A DNA stretch of 43,388 nt from a virus (lineage: Duplodnaviria; Heunggongvirae; Uroviricota; Caudoviricetes), in IMG/VR virus record IMGVR_UViG_2698536418_000010, one strand, 5' to 3'. Shown in pieces: positions 1 through 43,388 of the stretch. Every line of letters begins with the position of its first letter. Within the stretch, counting starts at the first letter, position 1. Made by a program: the position numbers and the translations under genes. Under the pieces are notes generated by a model. That model had not been told where the DNA came from. It ran no database searches and was given only the letters and a program-made list of their open reading frames with translations.

Positions 1-100
1 AGGCAACTAAGCCTGCATTAATGCCAACTTTTAGCGCACGGCTCTCTCCCAAGAGCCATTTCCCTGGACCGAATACAGGAATCGTATTCGGTCTTTTTTT
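1..100 (+). ncRNA. sdsR: sRNA SdsR/RyeB-like gene (host); antisense RyeA expected on the minus strand
   Basis: Matches my recollection of the conserved SdsR sequence (GCCUGCAUUAAUGCCAACUUUUAGCGCACGGCUCUCUCCCAAGAGCC...GGACCGAAUACAGGAAUCGUAUUCGGUC + U-run); two stem-loops (41-58, 67-93); not verified by search. Confidence 0.45.
67..100 (+). terminator. Rho-independent terminator (10-bp stem gaccgaatac/gtattcggtc, loop aggaatc, T7)
   Basis: Perfect 10-bp inverted repeat followed by ttttttt at 94-100. Confidence 0.75.
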
Positions 101-160
101 AATTGTATTTAAAATCAATTAGTTGCAAACGTCTTCCCGAAATTCCCCGAAATTTACTCG

Positions 161-231: not shown

Positions 232-1308
232 TCAGAGTAGTAAGTACGTTTTTTCTCTCTCATCAAGATACATTTTTGTTGTCTTCTCCGATGTGTGGCC
301 AAGTAGACGCTGAGCAAATTCTTCTCCACATGTTTCTTTGTACAATCGTCCAGCCAGACTTCTGATCTCGTGAAAAGTTGGTGGGTTTTCACTGAACTGG
401 ATACCTGTTAATTTTCTGGCTGCGACAAATTTTTTTGTCAGGCCATCCGGGTGAATGCTGCCGTCAGGGCTGTTTTTTCTAATCCCGGCACTGATTAGAT
501 AATCTCCCCGGCTTACCAGGCGGCACTGTTCAACTACTGTACCAAGCCGTAGACCAGCGACAGGAAGGCTGAGTGACAGGGGGATAGCAATCATCATTCC
601 TGTCTTAATTTGCCTGATGTGGAGACGATCATCATAAATATCACTAAAGCGCATATTCGTTATGTCTTCGCGACGTTGTCCTGTTACAAGGGCTAAATCC
701 ATAGCTAATGGGAACCATGCCGGAAGTTGATCTGCTGCCTCCCTGATGCAGTTGTATGTCTTTAGTTTCAGTCGTTCTCTTGTAACTACTATTTTCGGTG
801 CTCTTGTTGGCGTTACTGGATTTTGAGATATACGTCCATCAACAATGGCCTCACGAAACATATCAGACAACACAGAACGCATTGATCCTGCCATTGTGTT
901 TTTCCCTCCTTCAATCCACAAATCAAGAAACTCGGCAATATGGCGAGTGGTTATTTCTGTCAGTAAAATTTCCCCCAATTTTTCTTTTATTGTCTCCAGT
1001 TGATTTACCCGAATTTTATAAGTATTTCTGGACACTTTTCTCCTTATAAGAATCGTTTTGTAACGTTCAATCCAGTCTGCCATAGTAAATGAGTCGAACC
1101 CTTTAAGCTTTTCAATTAAGGCAGCAGGAGAGTAGTTTTTGTATATATAATGATTTGCTTCAATTGCCTGCGCTACTGCATCTCTTCTTGAAATTTTACC
1201 TAGTGTAAATTCTTCTTTCGTCAGAGGGTTGCGCCAGTAATATGCTTTGTCCCTCCTTCGATATGTTAAGTTTTTAGGCAAATTGGGATCGTATTTTTTC
1301 CGCTGCAT
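232..1308 (-). CDS. Tyrosine integrase, lambda Int family (358 aa)
   Basis: ORF with lambda-Int-like N-terminus and C-terminal catalytic region (…[11 protein letters not shown]…LLGH…Y); adjacent to att and xis. Confidence 0.9.
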
Positions 1309-2093: not shown

Positions 2094-2903
2094 TTATTCT
2101 TCTGAATTATCGATTACACTGTATTCCCCGGTTAATACAGAGGAGTCTGCCGGATCGATTGTCAGTGGTTCCTTTTCATCCATTGATACTGCACGCTGGA
2201 TTTCAATTGAGACAGGCAGGTATTTAAACAGGCGACGAATAGCCGTTTTTTTTGCCATTTCTTCCCAGTGAGTTACCCATGGCCCGTTATTACCAGCCTT
2301 ACTCTGGCTGCGCACCAGTTCAATCTGTTTGCGCGTCATAACTTCAAACTGAGTCCCTCCGTCTTTCAGTCTTGCGACAGCATAGACGTGGGTCACTGGT
2401 GCATCTTCGTTTTCTCCCGGGCGGTGTATTAACTTTTCATCAAGGCCAAATTCAAAACTAAACTCGTCACCTTCACGGACAACACGGGCTGACAGGCTGG
2501 CGATTTGACCAGAACGGCGAGCCAGATCAATCATGCCGCGATAACCAATGATTAGCTGAACGTTCTTTTTACCGCTCTTTTCGTTTTTATTACCAAAAGG
2601 CAGTAAATATGCGTGGCCGAGGGCGCTACCTGGCTCAAGGCCGAGCTGTGAACACTGAACGATCGCACTGACAAAACTCATGGTGTCACAGTTTCCTAGC
2701 GCCGGAACCTTACGAATTTCTGTGGTGGCGATACGTATCATTCGTTCAGCCGTCATATGGCGTGGGAGAGCTGCTGCCAGTTGCTCTTTCATTGATGGCT
2801 GATTAATAAAGCTGATCACGTCGTTATTTTTTACTGCTGCTGGTGCACGGTTTCCCTGGGTTTTTTGCAGATCGGCTTTTGCGATAGGTGGTTGCTTAGT
2901 CAT
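2094..2903 (-). CDS. recT: RecT single-strand annealing protein
   Basis: Near-identical to recalled Rac RecT ([24 protein letters not shown]…); AAGGAG RBS 7 nt upstream of ATG at 2903. Confidence 0.9.
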
Positions 2904-5571
2904 TTGCATACTCCTTAGCCCAGCGGGGCAGTGATAACGTTTTAATAGCTGGCCATTCATCGGTATTCAGGCAGTCAGCCAGGGTCCTCAGATTGCGGTG
3001 ATATTCCTGCTGGCCTGCCAGTTTTGCTTCTTCGCCCATCATGAAAATCTCAACCGGGTAACGTCCGCATTCAACAGTTGTGCTGGCAACCAGAAAAACG
3101 AAAGTTGGCAGCACACCAAACTGTGCTTCATAACCGTCACTGTAGAATGCATCCTGAACGTGATAGCGGTAGTCGTAATAAGCCGTTTTGAATCGTTGAA
3201 TATCCGCTGTGGTTTTCACGTCCATGATCCAGTGAAATTCAGGGATAATTTTGTCCGGACGGCACCGACACAAAATTCCTGTTTCAGGATCTTCCCAGTA
3301 AATTGATGATTCAGCGTGTCCGGCGCTTTCAACAAGCCATTGACCCAGCGGCAAAGCCATAACGCTCTGATACATGAGTTCAATTTTCCGGCCTTCTTCG
3401 GCAGTGATAACCGTTTTTCCTGTGCTTGCGCATTCCATCAGAAACGCTTTCTCCTCTTCTTTTCCGGCGGTTGTACGGCGGTTAAATTCAGGTGCCACGA
3501 TAAAGCGGTTACTGAATTCTTCCGGTTCAAGTACACGGCAGTGGAAAGCGGTTCCTAAATCGAGCGTTTTTGTCTTTGTGGTGTCCGCTGGGGCATTTTT
3601 ACGCCACAAATACAGAGCCGGAGTATCAGCAATGTCGTCGAGCTGAGACTTACTGACACCGGGACCCGCGTGGTAATTCTCATTCGAAATTCCGTAATAA
3701 ATACCAGGCTCTATGTCTCCTGCGATTACGGGATCTGCGACTTCGCCAGTTTCATCACTGCAATCGCGATGCGGATCGCTGCCAGCATTCTCATTGTGCG
3801 GATGTTCAGGGCCTTCCATTTCCTCCGGATCTTTTTCCTGAGATTCATCCAGATTTTCTTCATTAAAGGTTTCCTGATATGTGGTGTCGCCCATCACCGC
3901 GCCACAATCAGGGCAGTTGCCGCCACCGCTCTGACCGCGGGCGGCACAGACTTTTTCCGGTTCCTGTTGCGCTACTGGTTCAGATTGTTTCGTTTCTGGC
4001 TCATTTTTCTGTGCATTTTGGCTGTTTTGTTCCGCTTTCTGGTTGTTTTGTTCCGATTTGGGCTGGTTCTGGTTCACAGAATCTCGGGTTTCAATTCCCT
4101 TAACCCATTTCGGATCATTCGGGTCGCTAATCCCTTCAACAAATTCTCCGCGAGAGGCAGCCAGTAATTTGTCTGCATCGACAGGATTTTTGGGCGGAAT
4201 GTTTTTCCGGGCTTCATAGAGTTCTGCCCGCAGTTTCTGATATTTCGCATCAACAGAATTTACCTGTGACTGAGCATCCAGCGGCTGCGTGTCCTGATGA
4301 TGTTCAGTTGCATCCGGTTCCACTGTTTCAGCCGTTGCCTGTTCATCTGCCATTGCGCAAGATGGTTGCAGTTTTTCTTCATCATCCTGTTTTTCTTCTT
4401 CTGTTACACGCTGCGGCATCGGGGCAGAGGAACGACCGCAGGCAATATCCACGATTTCTGGATCAGGGTTGGCATGATCAGTTTCAGTCAGTACTTTGTT
4501 AAGATATTCAGTGACGTGTGCGGGGATAACCTCGATCCCAATTGGTGCTTCTTTTACGGACGCAACCACGATGGCGCGGGAATAATCCAGCCCGCCAGGC
4601 ATGGTGATGAATTTGTCGCGGAAAACAGAAAAGGGCGGTTTATTTTCAGCGATAATTTCCTCGACACGTTTAGCGTGTGCCGGATGAAGGTTATAAATGT
4701 CCACGTCCATTGAACGAGCCAGTACGCCAGTGGCTACGTCGCGCGCCAGTGACGTCAGATCGTGAATGAAACCTTCGCCGCGATCGGTGAGGTTCCCGCC
4801 GCCAGCATTAGCGCCGGAAGCCGTGCGCGTGATGCGTGAAACACGGTTTCCTTTCATCCACTCTTTTGTCAGCAGACCGCGATCGGTGTAGTCTGCGTCC
4901 AGGTATGCTTCGAAAAAAGCAGTCATCAGCCCCAGGCTTGAATTGCCTGGATTAGGGAAAACTCTGTCAGTATCACGCACCAGTTTGTGGAGATCGCGAA
5001 TTTCCAGCGGGTCGAGCAGGCTGGTTTTGTGGGAAACAGCCAGGGCAGTAACAGCTGGTAGTTCTTCAGCTCGTGCAATGTGTAATGCCTGTAGTTCGTT
5101 GCGTGAAACGTGCGTTACCGGTTTTTCGCTGCCGTGTTGAGCAAGCCAGCGAATGGGCAGCTCCTGACCGGAAATCGGGAGTAGCATATTCTCCTCAATC
5201 TCCGTCATGTCTTCGCCATTAACATTGGTATTGTCAGTGCTGGCTGGCTTGTCCTGCGCAGAGGATGAGGGCGCGATAAATACCATTGTGATGCCATCTT
5301 CCCCGCCTTTTTCGTAACGGTTGCAGAATTCCGTATCAAATACGCCTTCTGGTGGAAGGTCATCAACAACGGGCAAATTGACGCGAACAGGTTTTTTAAA
5401 GTCATCTTCATCGTAGCCAGCATCGTCAATCGCAACAGCACCACGGGAGATGGCAATGGATAATTTTTTCGCTTCAGCCCAGTAGAAACCGCCTTTAATA
5501 CCGAGACGTTTTCTTACTTTGTCATTTTTTGCTTCGTAATACAGTGGGTAAACTTGTTTATCGGTGCTCAT
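2896..5571 (-). CDS. recE: RecE exonuclease VIII (891 aa; N-terminus diverges from K-12 RecE)
   Basis: Long ORF; C-terminal two-thirds matches recalled RecE (…[13 protein letters not shown]). Confidence 0.9.
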
Positions 5572-6820: not shown

Positions 6821-6973
6821 TTAGCAAGTATTTCTGGCAAGCCAGCGACGTGCGCCAGCTTCGGTTTTAAACGTTTTGCTTTTGGTATACGTCATGGCGG
6901 TGAATGTGCCGTCCTGATTGGGAAACACGCCACATACCAGAGATTCGTTGTTGCCAAGATCGATAGTATCCAT
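6821..6973 (-). CDS. YdaG-like small protein (50 aa)
   Basis: MDTIDLGNNESLVCGVFPNQDGTFTAMTYTKSKTFKTEAGARRWLARNTC; GAGG RBS. Confidence 0.45.
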   Translation of the reverse strand: MDTIDLGNNESLVCGVFPNQDGTFTAMTYTKSKTFKTEAGARRWLARNTC

Positions 6974-7278: not shown

Positions 7279-7698
7279 TTACTCCGGTGGGGGATTATCT
7301 TTAAGCCTGCCTCTCAAATATTTTTCTACATACTCATCGATTTCTTTTAGCCGGACTTCAAATAGCTCAATCATTCGTTGTTGTTCTGAGCCCGGTAGCT
7401 GGTTAAACAACTCAAGAAGTTTTCGTTGGGATTCATTTAACCACAATTCAGAAGATTCCTGTTCTCCAAAGAGGAGCTCAGGAGGAGATATGCCAAGTGC
7501 CTTTCCCAATATGACAGCGTCATGCACTCCAACATTTCTGCTGCCCGCCTCATAGTTACCTATACGCGATTGCGTCCATCCGCAGATTTCAGCAAGTTTT
7601 CCTTGAGATAAACCAAGCTTCTGCCTGCGCTCTTTAAGACGCATTGCAATTTTGTCATTGAGCCTACTAGCGGCAATTTTTTCGTTTTCTTTTTCCAT
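7279..7698 (-). CDS. Prophage repressor, DicA/RacR-like HTH (XRE family, no S24 peptidase domain)
   Basis: HTH motif LSQGKLAEICGWTQSRIGNYEAG; C-terminal LLELFNQLPGSEQQ resembles DicA; divergent from cro-like gene. Confidence 0.8.
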   Translation of the reverse strand: MEKENEKIAASRLNDKIAMRLKERRQKLGLSQGKLAEICGWTQSRIGNYEAGSRNVGVHDAVILGKALGISPPELLFGEQESSELWLNESQRKLLELFNQLPGSEQQRMIELFEVRLKEIDEYVEKYLRGRLKDNPPPE

Positions 7699-7794
7699 TG
7701 CATCCTTGTATCACGAATCGTGATTTACATAAAACACAAAATAGCTTGACCATATAACACAAGGTGTGTTTAAAATTGTCATCGGAGGTTTTCA
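7699..7794. promoter_or_regulatory. Divergent promoter/operator region: palindromes atcacgaatcgtgat (7710-7724) and aacacaaggtgtgtt (7756-7770); -35 TTGACC at 7746-7751
   Basis: Two 15-bp perfect inverted repeats between divergent HTH genes; sigma70-like -35/-10 for the rightward gene. Confidence 0.6.
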
Positions 7795-8037
7795 ATGAAC
7801 AAAATTTCAACATATCGAAAACAGCTTGGGCTGTCTCAAAGACAACTTGCTGTTCAGTTAGGGTGGATACAAAGCCGACTGGCAAATTACGAAGCAAATT
7901 TTCGTACCCCTGGACTAGAGGAGTGCAGAAAAATTGTTTCTACCCTTAATCGGCTTGGCGCTCATTGTGGACTTGACGATGTATTCCCCCCAGACGGTAA
8001 GCATAGCGAAAACAGCATAGGAGCGGTTGATTCATGA
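7795..8037 (+). CDS. Cro/YdaS-like HTH regulator (80 aa)
   Basis: HTH LSQRQLAVQLGWIQSRLANYE; GGAGG RBS; divergent from repressor. Confidence 0.75.
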   Translation: MNKISTYRKQLGLSQRQLAVQLGWIQSRLANYEANFRTPGLEECRKIVSTLNRLGAHCGLDDVFPPDGKHSENSIGAVDS

Positions 8038-8459
8038 AAATCAGGCATAAGCACATCGAATCAGTGTTGTTAGCCCTGGCAGCCGAAAAAGGGCAGGCGT
8101 GGGTCGCTAACGCAATTACTGAAGAATATCTGCGCCAGGGGGGGGGCGGCGAATTGCCCCTTGTACCAGGCAAGGACTGGAACAATCAGCAGAATATCTA
8201 TCACCGTTGGTTGAAAGGTGAAACGAAAGCGCAAAGGGAAAAAATTCAGAAACTGATCCCTGCGGTTCTGGCAATTCTTCCGCGCGAGCTGCGTCACCGA
8301 CTCTGCATCTTCGATACCCTGGAACGCCGTGCATTACTGGCGGCGCAGGAAGCGTTGAGTACGGCAATTGATGCGCATGATGATGCAGTCCAGGCCGTTT
8401 ACCGGAAAGCACATTTCAGCGGTGGTGGGTCGCCCGGCGATTCTGTCGTAGTGCATTGA
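8034..8459 (+). CDS. YdaT-like protein
   Basis: Position immediately after the Cro-like gene as in Rac ydaS-ydaT; overlapping stop/start. Confidence 0.6.
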   Translation: MKIRHKHIESVLLALAAEKGQAWVANAITEEYLRQGGGGELPLVPGKDWNNQQNIYHRWLKGETKAQREKIQKLIPAVLAILPRELRHRLCIFDTLERRALLAAQEALSTAIDAHDDAVQAVYRKAHFSGGGSPGDSVVVH

Positions 8460-38012: not shown

Positions 38013-38689
38013 GCAAATACACCGAACTAATCACGAACTACCACGCCACTAAACCTAAATTTCTTGCGCATGTTGATCTGATGACCCGGCCGCTTATTGA
38101 TGTTGCGGCTGCCACCAGAGGGCTGATTACTGCATTTGATATTGACTCTGCGGTTGGTGTGCAACTTGACATTCTGGGATTGTGGATCGGACGTAGCCGT
38201 GTTGTCAGCCAGCCTATCTCAGGTGTCTATTTCAGCTGGGATACCGACGGGCTTGGATATGATCAGGGGGTATGGCAGGGACCATACGATCCTGATTCCG
38301 GATACATGTACCTCAGCGATGAAACTTATCGTGTCATTCTTAAAGCGAAGATTGCGATTAATAACTGGGATGGACGGAATGATTCTCTTCCGGCAATTCT
38401 TGACGCTGCAACAGCAGGATCCGGGCTGCGAATGCAGATAGTCGATAACCAGGACATGACGATATCGGTCTGGGTCTTTCCTGATACTGATATTTCAGAT
38501 GTATCGCGTGAGTTAATTGCGGCAATTAAACAGGGGTATCTCACAGTAAAAGCCGCCGGGGTATGGGCGGGTGGCATTGAAACACCTTCGGTGGAAACCC
38601 CATCGGAAGGCTCAAAATTTTTTGGTTTTGATATGGATAACGAATTCATCAGTGGTTTTGATGTAGGAGCATGGGGAGTATTACTCTGA
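38009..38689 (+). CDS. Baseplate/tail protein (Mu gp48-like)
   Basis: 226 aa, precedes tail fibre. Confidence 0.7.
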
Positions 38690-39375
38690 TGGCGAAAAAT
38701 GACTTTAAAGCGTTTGCAACGGATCGAAATGCCAATGTTATGTCGCAGGAGGAATGGGAAGCGTTGCCTGCGCTTTTATCCGGATTTACAGCAGGGAAAG
38801 CATCCAGTGCGCAGGTGAACAAAGCCATTCGACAGGCCAGCTTTATTGCTGCAGCTCTGGCCCAGTTTGTAAGTGACAAAACGCAACGGGATGTGCTTGA
38901 TAATGGTGATCTGCCCGGTTTTGTTGAATTGCTTGGATCGGGGTTTGCTGTTGAATACCTGAGCCGCAAAAATCCGTTTGGCGATATCAAATCGGACGGC
39001 ACAGTGAAAACGGCTCTCGAAAACCTTGGTTTGGGAGAAGGCTCTGCATTACCGGTTGGGGTGCCTGTTCCGTGGCCTTCAGCCACTCCGCCAACAGGCT
39101 GGCTGAAATGCAACGGTGCCGCTTTTTCTGCTGAAGAATACCCGGAACTGGCAAAGGCTTATCCGGCAAATAAATTGCCTGATTTACGTGGTGAGTTTAT
39201 TCGTGGCTGGGATGACGGGCGTGGTATTGATGCTGTACGTGCCTTGCTAAGTCTTCAGAATGGAGGAGTGGAATCACACACCCACCAAGGGCAGCTCTTC
39301 AGAGTTAGTGATTATCGTACATATGTATGCAACTCGATGCCTGGGATGCTGAAACCAGTATCCCTGCCCTGCTAA
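38689..39375 (+). CDS. Tail fibre protein: constant N-terminal part + partial variable part, disrupted after codon …DYRT (about 39321) and fused out of frame to host-like sequence
   Basis: Residues from GEGSALPV… to …DYRT are identical to the minus-strand Sv copy at 42813-43310; divergent 17-aa tail; no tfa gene downstream. Confidence 0.7.
39022..39042 (+). promoter_or_regulatory. pix/gix-like recombination site inside tail-fibre gene (aaacc-tt-ggttt core)
   Basis: Palindromic core resembling recalled Gin/Pin crossover sites; same core at 41482-41493 and (inverted) 43309-43320. Confidence 0.45.
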
Positions 39376-39449
39376 ATGGCGAACACTCTGTCCTTTACCG
39401 TACCCGTTACGATCAACAATCTGATGCCTGGATTATGCGTCTTGCCTGA
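39322..39449 (+). pseudogene. 3' fragment of a host gene (yebV-like), truncated at the rearrangement junction
   Basis: Open frame …[37 protein letters not shown] starting exactly where tail-fibre homology ends. Confidence 0.3.
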
Positions 39450-39553
39450 TCCAAAAAGAACCCGTCGGCATGGCGGGTTATTTGTCCTGGTTATTCCCCC
39501 GTTGTAAAATCTCTCCTAAACTTAACGGTACGGCACCACACTTCGGGGATGAA

Positions 39554-39745
39554 ATGTTCGCGCTGGTACTTTTTGTTTGCTACCTGGATGGCGGTTGTGA
39601 AGATATTGTTGTGGATGTCTACAACACGGAACAGCAGTGTCTTTATTCTATGAGCGATCAACGGATCCGCCATGGCGGTTGTTTTCCGATTGAGGATTTT
39701 ATAGATGGTTTCTGGCGACCAGCACAGGAGTATGGTGATTTTTAA
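39554..39745 (+). CDS. YebW-like small protein (63 aa)
   Basis: MFALVLFVCYLDGGCEDIVVDVYNTEQQC…; matches my recollection of E. coli YebW next to pphA. Confidence 0.5.
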   Translation: MFALVLFVCYLDGGCEDIVVDVYNTEQQCLYSMSDQRIRHGGCFPIEDFIDGFWRPAQEYGDF

Positions 39746-40402
39746 TTATTGCAATTGCACAAGAGTCAGTTCGCCCCCAAAGACAGCACCGGTATCAATA
39801 TAATGCAGGTTGCCAATATCCACGCGATGTCGCAACGGTGTATGACCAAACCAGAAATGATCAGCACCTGTAATTCCCTGCCCTTTTTGGCGTTCACCTA
39901 ATCGCGAGCGGCTCCACAAGACCTGATGCAAATCAACGTCCTTTTGCCATTCATAAACATCATCTGGATAATCGGCATGAGCAATAACATGTTTGCCGGT
40001 ACGACTGTGTACTTCAAGAATAAAGGGCAAATGCTGACATTTTTCCAGCGCCGTTTTCGCTTGTTTCTGTTGATTATCTGCCAGCGCAATAAACCAGTCG
40101 CCGCCATTCATCAACCACAAAGACATCTGCTGGGATGCCAGCGCATCCATCGCCATCTGTTCATGATTGCCTCTTACCGCACGAACCCAATGTTGTTCCA
40201 GTAACTGCAGGCAACGTAAACTTTGCGGCCCACGATCGATAACGTCTCCCACTGAGATAAGTAAATCTCGCCACGGATCAAAACCACAATGCCATAATTT
40301 GCGGCGCAACTGCTCAAGACAACCGTGTATATCGCCAGAAAGCCAGATATGTCGCCATTGATGACCCGCAATTCTCTGATAAACGGGCGCAGGCTGTTTC
40401 AT
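39746..40402 (-). CDS. pphA: Ser/Thr protein phosphatase 1 (lambda-PPase family)
   Basis: Metallophosphatase motifs GDIHGC, GDVIDRG, GNHE; GGGAGG RBS; ATG at 40402 (track uses upstream TTG). Confidence 0.85.
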   Translation of the reverse strand: MKQPAPVYQRIAGHQWRHIWLSGDIHGCLEQLRRKLWHCGFDPWRDLLISVGDVIDRGPQSLRCLQLLEQHWVRAVRGNHEQMAMDALASQQMSLWLMNGGDWFIALADNQQKQAKTALEKCQHLPFILEVHSRTGKHVIAHADYPDDVYEWQKDVDLHQVLWSRSRLGERQKGQGITGADHFWFGHTPLRHRVDIGNLHYIDTGAVFGGELTLVQLQ

Positions 40403-40535
40403 CAATATTTTCCTCCCGCGCTAAAGATCACATAATCTTAACAAGAATGTTAAAAAACGCTGGACTCAGACAGTAGAGTGTGTGTTATGGTTGACTATAA
40501 AGTCAGCGAAGGAAATGCTTCTGGCTTTTAACAGA

Positions 40536-40561
40536 TAAAAAGAGACCGAACACGATTCCTG
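40536..40561 (-). repeat. Inverted copy of the sdsR terminator 3' half (att core-like; candidate attR)
   Basis: Minus strand reads aggaatcgtgttcggtctcttttt vs aggaatcgtattcggtcttttttt at 77-100. Confidence 0.5.
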
Positions 40562-40866
40562 TTTTCGTCAACAAACGACAAAATCCTTTAGAATTAATGT
40601 GTTAAATAAATTTATGCTCATCTTTTAATCCCTAACACATACCATTACATATTAATACATTCAATTAGTTACCATTTTTTTCGAGTTTTTTAGAGAAATT
40701 TTCGGGAATATTTCAGGTCAATCCATGCATACACAAGCAATTCCTGTATTGAATAATTCCGTAGCAATTATGTAAAATCACCTTCGGCTGATTTTCATTC
40801 AAACTCGCGCTATCGAACGTCCATCAGCCAGCCGTGGCACGTTCTTGCATACGACGTGCTGCGGTT

Positions 40867-41420
40867 TCATTTATCTCCGACCGGAAACTTCTTATACAAA
40901 GTCGATACGCCAACATCATAGATGATCTCCACATTCTGGCGATGAACTCCTGATGCAATTAGTCGCCCGGCCTGCGCCCATTGTTCTGATGAAAGTTCGG
41001 GACGGCGACCGCCAATTCGTCCCTGTGCGCGAGCAGCTTCCAGTCCAGCTTTTGTTCGTTCAACAATCAGTTCACGCTCCATTTCAGCCAGGGCACCCAT
41101 GACATGAAAAAAGAAACGGCCATTGGGGTGCTGGTATCAATACTGTCAGTCAGGCTTCGGAAATTCACGCCACGCTGACGCAACTCTTCTATCAGCGTAA
41201 CAAGATGCCGCATACTGCGCCCCAACCTGTCCAGCTTCCAGACAACCAGAGTGTCTCCTGCCGATAGTGTCCTGAGCAGTTTTTTAAGCCCCGGTCTGTC
41301 GGACTTAGTGCCACTGATTTTATCCTCAAAAACCCGCTCACATCCCGCGCAGTTCAGTGCATTACGTTGCAGATCGGTGTTCTGGTCATTTGTTGATACG
41401 CGTACATAGCCAATAAGCAT
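40867..41420 (-). pseudogene. Pin/Gin-family serine DNA invertase, frameshifted (1-nt loss in G-run near 41120)
   Basis: N-terminal 109 aa (MLIGYVRVSTNDQNTDLQ…SIDTSTPM) and C-terminal HTH part (MGALAEMERELIVERTKAGL…) are in different frames; window reads atggccgtttc where a functional pin would need atgggccgtttc. Confidence 0.8.
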
Positions 41421-41493
41421 GTTAAATCCCCTTGGTAAAAGCAGGAATGATGCCATTTGCTTGTTATTTCTGCATTTTCATAAACGTTGGTTT
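41414..41493. repeat. Left inverted repeat of invertible segment (pin start + pix site)
   Basis: 80 bp identical to reverse complement of 43309-43388. Confidence 0.85.
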
Positions 41494-41797
41494 AAGAGCA
41501 AGCGGGCAGTACACCGATAATTTGTTATTTACAGGTCCTGATGGTCTTAAGATTCAGGTGTTTCGCCGGACGCTCGCAAATTTGACTACTGTCGGTGTAG
41601 TAAATTCTGTGCCAGTGACTTTCCCTGTCCCGTTCCCTGTTAATTGCTGGGGCGTTTTTTCTACCAAATTAACATGGGTTCAGATAACTAACTCATGCGA
41701 GTGGGTAAGCAATACAGGATTTACCGCTCAGGTCATGATGAATATTGCTGTAAATACAAACACCTCAGACGCTATGTTTTTAGCTATAGGATATTAA
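41432..41797 (+). CDS. Tail-fibre variable C-terminal cassette Sv' (promoterless); first about 21 codons are read-through of the inverted repeat
   Basis: Open frame entering from the pix site; followed by tfa; N-terminus MVKAGMMPFACYFCIFINVGL is shared with the other cassette. Confidence 0.6.
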   Translation: MVKAGMMPFACYFCIFINVGLRASGQYTDNLLFTGPDGLKIQVFRRTLANLTTVGVVNSVPVTFPVPFPVNCWGVFSTKLTWVQITNSCEWVSNTGFTAQVMMNIAVNTNTSDAMFLAIGY

Positions 41798-41798
41798 T

Positions 41799-42239
41799 AT
41801 GAATCGTTTTGTGTTCAGTCCATCTGAGTCCCGTTTTTATGCCATCGAGTGGCAGGCTGATTATGTTGATAATAATTGTTGGCCACATGATGCCATTAAC
41901 GTTAGTGACAGCATTTATTATGAGTTTTCCGGCACTCCCCCTACAGGTAAGCAACTTATAACTTTAAATAACATGCCAGCATGGGGTGATATTCCTCCAC
42001 TTACACGAGAAGAATTAATTGTCGCTGCTGATGTGGAGAAGCAAAAAAGAATAGATTTAGCCAATGATTACATGAACGGTAAGCAATGGCCTGGTAAAGC
42101 AGCTATTGGTCGTCTGAAAGGTGAGGAACTGGCACAATATAATTTGTGGCTGGATTATCTGGGCGCACTGGAGCTGGTCGATACCGCCAGTGCGCCAGAT
42201 ATTGAATGGCCTACGCCTCCGGCAGTTCAGGCCAGATGA
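41799..42239 (+). CDS. Tail fibre assembly protein Tfa'
   Basis: 146 aa; C-terminal …APDIEWPTPPAV motif; starts 1 nt after Sv' stop. Confidence 0.8.
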   Translation: MNRFVFSPSESRFYAIEWQADYVDNNCWPHDAINVSDSIYYEFSGTPPTGKQLITLNNMPAWGDIPPLTREELIVAADVEKQKRIDLANDYMNGKQWPGKAAIGRLKGEELAQYNLWLDYLGALELVDTASAPDIEWPTPPAVQAR

Positions 42240-42813
42240 CATCCGGCGCGGTGCTGGTATCTGTTGCCGTCACCGCGTCAATGTAATCCAGCACAGTGTT
42301 AAGGCTGGTTGTTTCTGCCTGCGTCAGTTTACGTCCGGCCTGCAATTTCAGCTGAATCAGACTGATTGAAGCCATTGCAGTATCAATCAGTGACTGGCGC
42401 TGTGCTTCTGCTGCATCTACTGCGGCGCTATGCTGTGCTTCGGTATCCGTCACCCATTTCTCACCATCCCATTTATCGTATGGCGTTAACGGGGCGATAG
42501 TGGTTGTATTATCAGGGTAATCACCCGGAGCTGTGATTTCTTTTGATTCTCCTGTTTCGGTGCTAAAGACGATTTCACCGCGATGGTCTGGCACATATTC
42601 CCATGAGTTAAAATCTACAGATCGGCAGATTGCATAACCAGCTTTGTATGTGCCAGGGGCATCTAAACAGGAATATGCAGGGATACCGATACCAACGGCA
42701 AGATATTCAGTTGATGTGGAAATATATTCCCGTGTTTCGCCATCATAGTTATAGACGGTAATATTCCCCGCCTTTGTAGCAATAAACTCGCTATTTAATA
42801 CAGCGTTATCCAT
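42211..42813 (-). CDS. Tail fibre assembly protein Tfa
   Basis: 200 aa; C-terminal …APDVIWPELPEA; convergent with Tfa'. Confidence 0.8.
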   Translation of the reverse strand: MDNAVLNSEFIATKAGNITVYNYDGETREYISTSTEYLAVGIGIPAYSCLDAPGTYKAGYAICRSVDFNSWEYVPDHRGEIVFSTETGESKEITAPGDYPDNTTTIAPLTPYDKWDGEKWVTDTEAQHSAAVDAAEAQRQSLIDTAMASISLIQLKLQAGRKLTQAETTSLNTVLDYIDAVTATDTSTAPDVIWPELPEA

Positions 42814-43370
42814 TATGCAGCCCTCACGATATAGTTAAATGCAATATTCCGTGGACGGGTTTCATTTATCCCATATGCTGTTGTTCTCTGATTCCCGACA
42901 AAATATCCATTTGGATTAGAAGATACAGGATAATCATCAAAATCAAGTGGGCTATCAGCACCCGGCGTCAGGCTTGCAATATATCCTCTTCCCATAACTT
43001 CTGATGCTGGTATTTCTTTTGTACGATAATCACTAACTCTGAAGAGCTGCCCTTGGTGGGTGTGTGATTCCACTCCTCCATTCTGAAGACTTAGCAAGGC
43101 ACGTACAGCATCAATACCACGCCCGTCATCCCAGCCACGAATAAACTCACCACGTAAATCAGGCAATTTATTTGCCGGATAAGCCTTTGCCAGTTCCGGG
43201 TATTCTTCAGCAGAAAAAGCGGCACCGTTGCATTTCAGCCAGCCTGTTGGCGGAGTGGCTGAAGGCCACGGAACAGGCACCCCAACCGGTAATGCAGAGC
43301 CTTCTCCCAAACCAACGTTTATGAAAATGCAGAAATAACAAGCAAATGGCATCATTCCTGCTTTTACCAA
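42813..43370 (-). CDS. Tail-fibre variable C-terminal cassette Sv (full length; 5' part duplicated in the fibre gene at 39027-39321)
   Basis: Open frame entering from right pix site; contains the identical GEGSALPV…DYRT region then a 68-aa C-terminus. Confidence 0.65.
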   Translation of the reverse strand: MVKAGMMPFACYFCIFINVGLGEGSALPVGVPVPWPSATPPTGWLKCNGAAFSAEEYPELAKAYPANKLPDLRGEFIRGWDDGRGIDAVRALLSLQNGGVESHTHQGQLFRVSDYRTKEIPASEVMGRGYIASLTPGADSPLDFDDYPVSSNPNGYFVGNQRTTAYGINETRPRNIAFNYIVRAA

Positions 43371-43388
43371 GGGGATTTAACATGCTTA
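43309..43388. repeat. Right inverted repeat of invertible segment; contains start of a second pin gene on plus strand (ATG 43382)
   Basis: Reverse complement equals 41414-41493; atgctta at window edge equals the pin start ATG CTT A(TT). Confidence 0.8.

Follow-up and report, generated by a model that had tools for sequence, protein, structure and literature searches.

An invertible tail-fibre segment beside a frameshifted pin pseudogene in an Escherichia coli prophage, and an apparent second pin gene that is probably an assembly artefact

At the right end of a prophage we found an invertible tail-fibre segment of the Pin/Gin/Cin type, about 1.83 kb in length, which encodes two alternative C-termini of the fibre and a dedicated assembly chaperone for each. 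This type of system is already known, and the segment had been recognized as Pin-type in the first-pass annotation of this DNA, an assignment borne out here by the crossover sites, the Pfam content and the occurrence of both orientations among carriers. The segment had also been described as flanked by two invertase genes, and this view was not upheld. The "pin start" at the right edge appears to be the same pin locus seen in the other orientation, within an overhang of 73 nt. We therefore consider the apparent second pin to be a short-read assembly artefact, with a probability of roughly 0.85; as contig structure and relatives suggest, the locus would hold a single pin gene, which is a genuine frameshifted pseudogene.

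The window, i.e. the whole stretch of 43,388 nt that was analysed, is the entire draft scaffold CYCB01000038.1 (43,388 bp; assembly GCA_001283405.1), from which it differed solely by an A in place of N at position 39321 (compared over 12,322 nt). We refer to the part of the scaffold left of this N as contig X and to positions 39322-43388 as contig Y. The prophage is a SEN34-like myovirus of about 41.7 kb, inserted in E. coli at the sdsR 3' end between yebY and pphA (Table 1). Across the structural module it showed 98% DNA identity to Escherichia phage vB_EcoM-611R5 and 81% to Salmonella phage SEN34. Its integrase adjoins yebY in the complete genome CEA601S, and the constant tail-fibre part Sc follows downstream of baseplate J and wedge genes, the same as in the related loci L005-L009.

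Table 1. Features of the invertible locus, the prophage ends and the host flanks, with positions in the window.
Feature	Position	Strand	Evidence or remark
SdsR sRNA locus, left host flank	1-100	+	Rfam RF00111, 118 bits
RyeA sRNA locus, left host flank	1-104	-	Rfam RF00101, 136 bits
att repeat (sdsR 3' end), left	70-101	+	32-nt repeat with 40536-40567
Tyrosine integrase, left end of prophage	235-1308	-	Pfam Phage_integrase, Phage_int_M, Arm-DNA-bind_1
Sc, constant N-terminal tail-fibre part up to crossover core	38671-39025	+	ORF 38671-39375
pix1, Sc/Sv junction, 26 bp	39014-39039	-	TTCTCCCAAACC-AA-GGTTTTCGAGAG; core 39026-39027
Sv, first 295 nt, Collar-type	39026-39320	+	exact reverse complement of 43021-43315
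Scaffold join	39321	.	N in CYCB01000038.1, A in window
yebV 3' half	39322-39449	+	aligned to CS6L yebV
yebW	39470-39745	+	homologous-locus annotation; Metallophos/DUF1482 calls for yebW-pphA stretch
pphA	39746-40405	-	homologous-locus annotation; Metallophos/DUF1482 calls for yebW-pphA stretch
Second att repeat (copy of sdsR 3' end), right prophage boundary	40536-40567	-	32 nt, 90.6%
pin pseudogene, Gin/Pin-family serine DNA invertase	40867-41420	-	1-nt deletion at 41120-41121
pin leader/upstream spacer, pix2 to pin ATG	41421-41474	-	sequence
pix2, pin/Sv' junction	41475-41500	-	TGCTCTTAAACC-AA-CGTTTATGAAAA; core 41487-41488
Sv', alternative tail-fibre C-terminus, Gp53-like_C	41489-41797	+	PF21882, E=7.7e-8
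Tail-fibre assembly chaperone for Sv', 146 aa	41799-42239	+	Caudo_TAP, E=3e-25
Tail-fibre assembly chaperone for Sv, 200 aa, tfaE-like	42211-42813	-	Caudo_TAP, E=2e-32
Sv, alternative tail-fibre C-terminus, Collar domain	42813-43313	-	PF07484, E=5e-15
pix3, hybrid Sv/pin crossover site	43302-43327	+	TTCTCCCAAACC-AA-CGTTTATGAAAA; core 43314-43315
Contig-end overhang, 73 nt: pin-side half-site, 54-nt pin leader, ATGCTTA	43316-43388	+	left over after overlap of X with reverse-complemented Y

The segment carries Collar and Gp53-like_C variable parts together with two Caudo_TAP genes, arranged convergently on opposite strands, and in the orientation of the window Sv' is unfused to Sc. Its bounds are two crossover sites of 26 bp, inverted relative to each other, that have the central dinucleotide in common. 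Sites pix1 and pix3 agree in the AA core and in the half-site of Sv, with pix2 as the pin-side partner. Identity between the pix1 region and the Sv end of contig Y ends precisely at the core, and in a comparison of genomes with opposite orientation (L005 versus L006) the breakpoints fell at pix2, within 12 nt around the core. The first-pass annotation had placed the pin start codon, its upstream region and the pix core inside 80-bp inverted repeats, which agrees with the sequence: the exact repeat (41414-41493 and 43309-43388; 80 nt, or 90 nt at 96% in an extended form) covers the start codon of pin (ATG; minus strand, 41420-41418; plus strand, 43382-43384) and the spacer of 54 nt ahead of it, and at the crossover site (26 bp) it takes in the half towards pin, the AA core and a further 5 nt. 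The length of 80 nt for the right arm is fixed by the contig end and not by biology. Both inward ORFs, 41432-41797 (+) and 42813-43370 (-), begin with the same 21 residues encoded by the inverted repeat, MVKAGMMPFACYFCIFINVGL, which had rightly been taken as read-through: this peptide is antisense to the pin leader and no true N-terminus.

The left pin had been called a frameshifted pseudogene with the lesion in a G-run near 41120, and this was confirmed. One G is gone from a GGG run, with the coding sequence CCAATGG-CCG (plus-strand cc at 41120-41121) compared to CCAATGGGCCG in strain B27, whose intact allele is 94.6% identical to that of the window. The deletion splits the gene into a 117-aa Resolvase fragment (41067-41420; PF00239, E=3.5e-37) and a 77-aa fragment with helix E and HTH_7 (40867-41100; E=1.4e-10), leaving no functional invertase adjoining the segment. 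With an N-terminal Resolvase and a C-terminal HTH_7 domain the product is a small serine recombinase akin to Gin and Pin, and residues 1-181 of the repaired Pin aligned with the Mu Gin structure 3UJ3 (E=1.5e-91). Searches against NCBIfam gave no specific Pin model and only sub-threshold matches to other serine recombinases. Because its reading frame is broken, pin is classed as a pseudogene member of the Hin/Gin/Cin/Pin invertases. The frameshift is real, since no fewer than 20 contigs and 15 complete genomes share the identical deletion; RefSeq labels the same allele "frameshifted". Prophages with this allele were integrated either at sdsR-yebY or at yfhH-tadA, and the mosaic pin of CS6L carries it as well. 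Within the Hin family, the invertase gene carries a Fis-dependent enhancer in its 5' part. As the 5' part of pin is kept and is similar to that of intact alleles, the enhancer is probably present here.

The deposited record has N for position 39321, so that everything left of 39322 is tied to 39322-43388 by scaffolding only. This position marks the boundary between the tail fibre and mid-yebV, without microhomology. Searched as an exact 38-mer, the Sv/yebV junction had no match in IMG/VR or the GTDB representative genomes, and by megablast it was spanned by none of 5,426 complete E. coli genomes. The 234-aa tail-fibre/yebV chimeric protein was not on record in an exact look-up, probably because of the N at this place in the record. 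As origin of the junction, rearrangement by Pin at a secondary site, be it inversion or deletion, was rejected (the base is an N, with neither a pix-like sequence nor microhomology), as was a transducing-phage-like aberrant excision, for which the strand orientation is unfit.

The att sites of prophages are direct repeats. In the window the two att repeats lie on opposite strands, i.e. they are inverted, which indicates that the right contig is mis-oriented. The genes yebV, yebW and pphA (39322-40535) likewise face the wrong way with respect to the prophage, as the left flank is the sdsR/yebY side and host synteny thus demands pphA-yebW-yebV the other way round. An Rfam scan of 39300-43388 returned nothing; the complete SdsR is located at the other end of the window, with only its 3'-end repeat near pphA. 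False joins have been documented for scaffolding pipelines with SSPACE and GapFiller (PMC5320598). CYCB01000038.1 was probably made by a Velvet/SSPACE/GapFiller pipeline with k=81; no tie of the accession to the Sanger assembly pipeline was found in the supplement of the pipeline paper or by full-text search.

When contig Y was reverse-complemented and overlapped with contig X, the last 295 nt of X were found exactly in it, with 73 nt to spare; positions 39026-39320 are a terminal overlap of the two contigs and no biological duplication. The merged sequence was collinear with the chromosome-scale 5.03-Mb contig UGEV01000002.1 in one HSP of 7,359 nt and reads sdsR / int ... Sc - pix - [Sv, tfa', tfa, Sv'] - pix - pin - pphA - yebW - yebV, where pin occurs once. 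Each of the 19 further contigs encoding the identical 117-aa product, like the complete genomes examined, had one pin with Sc across the segment from it, and no second invertase gene was seen on the far side of the segment. A near-identical sister strain has an intact yebV and again one pin. Coding sequence of pin at the right edge amounts to 7 nt (ATGCTTA) at the very end of the draft contig. This end is located exactly 80 nt beyond the point where Sv and Sv' diverge (43308/43309), as would be expected if a junction node of a de Bruijn graph closed with its final 81-mer. The sister assembly CYBY01000012.1 (L007), 100% identical over 4,243 + 2,172 nt, has a single N right at a pix core; behind it the J-I-Sc block appears again, along with the segment in opposite orientation, and the two segment copies have identical interiors. 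To judge by this assembly, the sequence past 43388 would encode the same pseudogene, so that extension past the edge could not expose the two-pin error.

Under the reading that we prefer, the right contig would have been placed in the wrong orientation next to the left contig, and its 73-nt end would stem from reads of cells with a flipped segment, in which pin is joined to Sv rather than to Sv'. The scaffold holds three of the four junctions (Sc/Sv, pin/Sv' and pin/Sv), which would require an orientation-mixed culture; the artefactual second pin would thus be a consequence of the sequenced culture having held the segment in both orientations. A mixed culture would be unneeded if the 73-nt Sv/pin overhang and the 295-nt overlap came from a collapsed repeat, with a second, related prophage carrying an identical Sv beside its pin; that second pin would not flank the present segment. 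E. coli genomes with up to 5 pin-like loci and the presence of the same allele at both prophage sites are in line with this idea, but it demands 100% identity over Sv, pix and leader between two prophages, whereas the Sv of prophages at the other site has diverged (to about 91% identity over 209 nt). Flipping is also the simpler explanation for the sister assembly, where the whole 1.83-kb segment is present both ways with identical interiors, and we regard a contribution from a second prophage as improbable.

Among carriers of the same pin allele the segment was found in one orientation in L001, L005, L015 and L019 and in the other in L006, L009, L011, L012, L016-L018 and L022. At the second integration site, the orientation in 12009 and FWSEC0003 was opposite to that in UTAK-2, UTAK-6, 129 and 2011C-4251. 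Both junction types are moreover present within this scaffold and within L007. As a 100% identical frameshifted allele occurs with either orientation, inversion went on after the frameshift, and with the cis invertase broken it was most likely catalysed in trans. At the DNA level the system is a member of the Hin/Gin/Cin/Pin group, but the enzyme must come from elsewhere. Inversion in trans had also been proposed in the first-pass annotation; the need for an invertase supplied in trans most likely stands, while a second pin copy as its source is unsupported. Another Hin-family invertase of the same genome would act on the intact pix sites, and the Fis-dependent enhancer, by what is known of the family, would persist inside the pin pseudogene. 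Such cross-action has precedents: PinQ, from another prophage, flips the P segment of e14, Fin works on the H segment of Salmonella, which lies beside hin, and both Mu G and the Salmonella phase determinant are substrates of PinE (PMC12529663). Clonal cultures of E. coli were observed to hold both orientations side by side (PMC4272514). Genomes of the O103:H2 type have just one pin locus at megablast level, so any trans enzyme there must be divergent; this would be possible, given that PinQ was reported to be only 38% identical to PinE.

The frameshifted pin might instead be leaky, with a -1 ribosomal slip on U_UUU_UUC, or transcriptional slippage in the T6 run (insertion of a T by RNA polymerase), giving a low level of full-length invertase and reduced inversion in cis. 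The heptamer stands in phase at a distance of 9 nt past the deletion, and a -1 slip there restores the frame to 184 aa, with GRF to AVS at the start of helix E as the sole difference from intact alleles. These three substitutions sit in a conserved motif, however, and no stimulatory structure was found. Intact alleles also have the T-run, where it codes for a conserved FFF, and it is hence not a feature evolved for frameshifting. The spread of the allele over two integration sites and the mosaic CS6L pin while the segment still flips, together with the lack of another close pin homologue in O103:H2-type genomes, would suit a leaky gene, but complementation in trans is well established for Hin-family invertases and is enough by itself, and we think residual activity of pin very unlikely. 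If true, it would amount to low, translationally throttled tail-fibre switching in cis and would explain the persistence of the allele at two sites with flipping segments.

A true inverted duplication, in which two inverted pin copies (the left one frameshifted) and host DNA up to mid-yebV flank the segment, is hardly credible, for although contig Y is N-free and reads pin(-)-pix-segment-pix-pin start(+), the "second copy" consists of the 7 coding nt at a contig end, the Sc/Sv junction of contig X would be left without a segment unless this had been doubled as well, the att repeats would have to be inverted, the layout occurs in 0 of 5,426 complete genomes and 0 of the 19 other contigs with the allele, the near-identical sister strain has its yebV intact and one pin, and X merges perfectly with reverse-complemented Y to the canonical layout.

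The locus resembles the e14 P segment with PinE of strain K-12 (stfP-tfaP-tfaE-stfE-pinE) in having a segment of about 1.8 kb, Collar-type and gp53-like C-termini, a pair of Caudo_TAP chaperones, crossover sites of 26 bp around an AA core, and an invertase gene that begins just outside one site; RefSeq names the present genes pinE and tfaE, and both orientations of the P segment have been found in cultures (PMC4272514). In contrast, e14 is a defective lambdoid prophage at icd, whereas here a complete-looking SEN34-like myovirus prophage is inserted at sdsR-pphA, and the invertase is frameshifted. The Mu G segment with Gin has the same order (Sc - site - [Sv U U' S'v] - site - invertase), and the match to 3UJ3 is to Gin; the variable parts and the phage backbone differ, as does the inactivation of the cis invertase by a frameshift. 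With PinQ on e14 and Fin on the Salmonella H segment (PMC12529663) the locus would share an invertase encoded elsewhere in the genome, but K-12 has an intact PinE in cis, and the trans enzyme of the present system is putative. In vB_EcoM-611R5 the order of tail fibre, segment and invertase is the same, but that record is placed at yfhH/tadA, and the CDS annotated for its invertase is shorter.

A widespread pin pseudogene next to segments in both orientations fits the published view that prophage invertases cross-act in trans on segments. Caution is advised with short-read assemblies, where orientation-mixed segments can lead to hairpin-like contigs, false joins at a single N and duplicated blocks that mimic exotic gene arrangements. 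The assembly artefact doubles as indirect evidence of a switch that was still flipping in culture. The artefacts of this scaffold also gave rise to a fusion of the tail fibre with a host gene and to a perfect inverted repeat of 301 nt.

Judged from its sequence, the region holds a Pin-type invertible tail-fibre segment, a system that belongs to an already known kind of biology. Alternative tail-fibre C-termini (Sv and Sv') and putative tail-fibre assembly chaperones lie between two crossover sites (pix), and at the DNA level the Gin/Pin-type switch is intact. The first 21 residues common to both inward open reading frames are encoded antisense to the leader of the serine invertase gene pin, which agrees with the proposal of the first-pass annotation that this shared peptide is read-through.

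Predicted parts of the invertible segment and its crossover sites
Feature	Position	Strand	Description
pix1, crossover site, 26 bp	39014-39039	minus	Meeting point of Sc (constant N-terminal part of the tail fibre) and Sv; AA core
pix2, crossover site, 26 bp	41475-41500	minus	Meeting point of pin and Sv'; AA core
pix3, crossover site, 26 bp	43302-43327	plus	Meeting point of Sv and pin leader; AA core
Sv'	within pix2-pix3 interval		Gp53-like_C domain
Caudo_TAP chaperone, 146 aa	within pix2-pix3 interval		
Caudo_TAP chaperone, 200 aa	within pix2-pix3 interval	opposite to 146-aa chaperone	
Sv	within pix2-pix3 interval		Collar domain

The segment had initially been placed between two invertase genes, but there is no real second pin. 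The window corresponds to the complete draft record CYCB01000038.1 (43,388 bp) of assembly GCA_001283405.1, and the sole difference between the two in 12,322 nt is position 39321, where the record has N and the window A. This position is an abrupt boundary, free of microhomology, at which the initial ~300 nt of Sv give way to host sequence halfway through yebV. No complete E. coli genome spanned this junction, and its exact 38-mer had no match in IMG/VR or GTDB representative genomes. The N and the abrupt junction not found elsewhere therefore indicate that the window is a scaffold of two contigs, X (1-39320) and Y (39322-43388). The last 295 nt of X match exactly within the reverse complement of Y, and X merged with reverse-complemented Y is collinear with UGEV01000002.1 in a single 7,359-nt HSP. 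In the merged sequence the elements run sdsR - int ... J - I - Sc - pix - [Sv tfa' tfa Sv'] - pix - pin - pphA - yebW - yebV, the one-pin layout of every related genome examined. After the merge, only 73 nt of Y remain (43316-43388), consisting of the pin-side half-site, the 54-nt leader and ATGCTTA. Pipelines combining SSPACE scaffolding and GapFiller have been called greedy and prone to false joins by their authors (PMC5320598), and GCA_001283405.1 may have come from such a pipeline.

A perfect inverted repeat of ~300 nt (39021-39321 / 43020-43320), at which tail-fibre gene 38671-39375 appears fused to host yebV, is the overlap of the two scaffolded contigs and no duplication. The repeat search listed it as "301-nt, 100%" because the A shown at 39321 fits by chance. 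The 234-aa chimeric tail-fibre/yebV open reading frame is likewise no real gene.

With a single pin, the pin leader is joined to Sv' or to Sv, depending on how the segment lies. Both of these junctions are present in the scaffold, pin|Sv' together with Sc|Sv from one orientation and pin|Sv from the opposite one. The simplest reading is that the sequenced culture was mixed for segment orientation, a mixture that clonal cultures are known to show for the e14 segment (PMC4272514). It is unlikely that the 73 nt derive from a collapsed repeat of a second related prophage, for which the culture need not be mixed; such a prophage would still not put a second pin next to this segment. The inverted repeats first described as 80 bp long (41414-41493 / 43309-43388) do match exactly over 80 nt, and at 96% over 90 nt. 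The contig ends exactly 80 nt past the base at which Sv and Sv' diverge (43308|43309), which fits the end of the last 81-mer at a de Bruijn graph junction node, and the start of the left arm at 41414 would follow by symmetry; the repeat thus appears to be bounded by assembler mechanics.

The sister assembly CYBY01000012.1, from the same accession series, showed 100% identity over 6.4 kb. It carries a lone N (5777) exactly at a pix core, after which a J-I-Sc block (baseplate genes and constant tail-fibre part) is repeated and the segment appears a second time, inverted; apart from the hybrid half-site base, the two copies of the segment are identical. The repeated block comprises 2,335 nt, with a single mismatch between its copies (A at 2797, G at 6955) that may reflect either an error of the consensus or true heterogeneity.

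The remaining pin (40867-41420, minus strand) is frameshifted by a single-base loss, as the first-pass annotation had noticed. Its GGG run is short of one G, reading CCAATGG-CCG versus CCAATGGGCCG in the intact allele of strain B27 (plus-strand "cc" at 41120-41121), and the gene is broken into a 117-aa Resolvase fragment and a 77-aa helix-E/HTH_7 fragment. With the G put back, residues 1-181 align to the Mu Gin structure 3UJ3 (E=1.5e-91). The same truncated product occurs on 20 contigs of independent assemblies, including the 5.03-Mb contig UGEV01000002.1, and the allele is found at ≥99% identity in 15 complete genomes; it is labelled "frameshifted" in strain CS6L and in 8/8 carriers whose annotation was read, including ETEC H10407 and O103:H2 12009. 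Given this recurrence, the frameshift is no sequencing error of the window contig. The frameshift is also present in a mosaic pin of CS6L (7546-8099 of that locus) with a diverged 5' third, and in prophages at yfhH-tadA with different variable segments; the pseudogene allele has therefore spread by recombination or phage transfer.

The segment was seen in both orientations in carriers of this same, identical frameshifted allele, and this holds at both integration sites, sdsR-yebY and yfhH-tadA. Inversion most likely happens in trans, as already suggested in the first-pass annotation, through another Hin-family invertase; PinQ inverts e14 in this way, and Fin the H segment of Salmonella (PMC12529663). 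The pin 5' region is assumed still to contain the cis enhancer. A leaky allele giving full-length protein by a -1 slip is very improbable. An in-phase U_UUU_UUC heptamer (DNA T_TTT_TTC; within 41095-41125, pin coding strand) does lie 9 nt past the deletion, where a -1 slip or T insertion would restore the frame and change GRF to AVS, but nothing marks it as programmed because the T-run exists in intact alleles too.

The orientation of contig Y can also be read from the prophage ends. A complete SdsR/RyeA locus opens the window (1-104), the contig starting exactly at SdsR model position 1, and is followed by an integrase gene that adjoins yebY in complete genomes. The 3' end of sdsR recurs as a repeat at 70-101 and, on the opposite strand, near pphA at 40536-40567. 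The two copies are the prophage att sites and show that the prophage integrated at the 3' end of sdsR/ryeA. Prophage att sites are normally direct repeats, and those of the window are inverted; Y is therefore mis-oriented in the scaffold, in agreement with the host synteny yebY - sdsR - pphA - yebW - yebV. A real inverted duplication from pin to yebV is scarcely credible, as it would require the segment to be duplicated as well and the att sites to be inverted, in a layout found nowhere else. Genes for RecT and for a RecE-like exonuclease VIII/PDDEXK protein lie in the prophage early region (2097-5571), and the annotation of the homologous region in the complete genome of CEA601S places an excisionase and the toxin gene ralR beside integrase, recT and recE.
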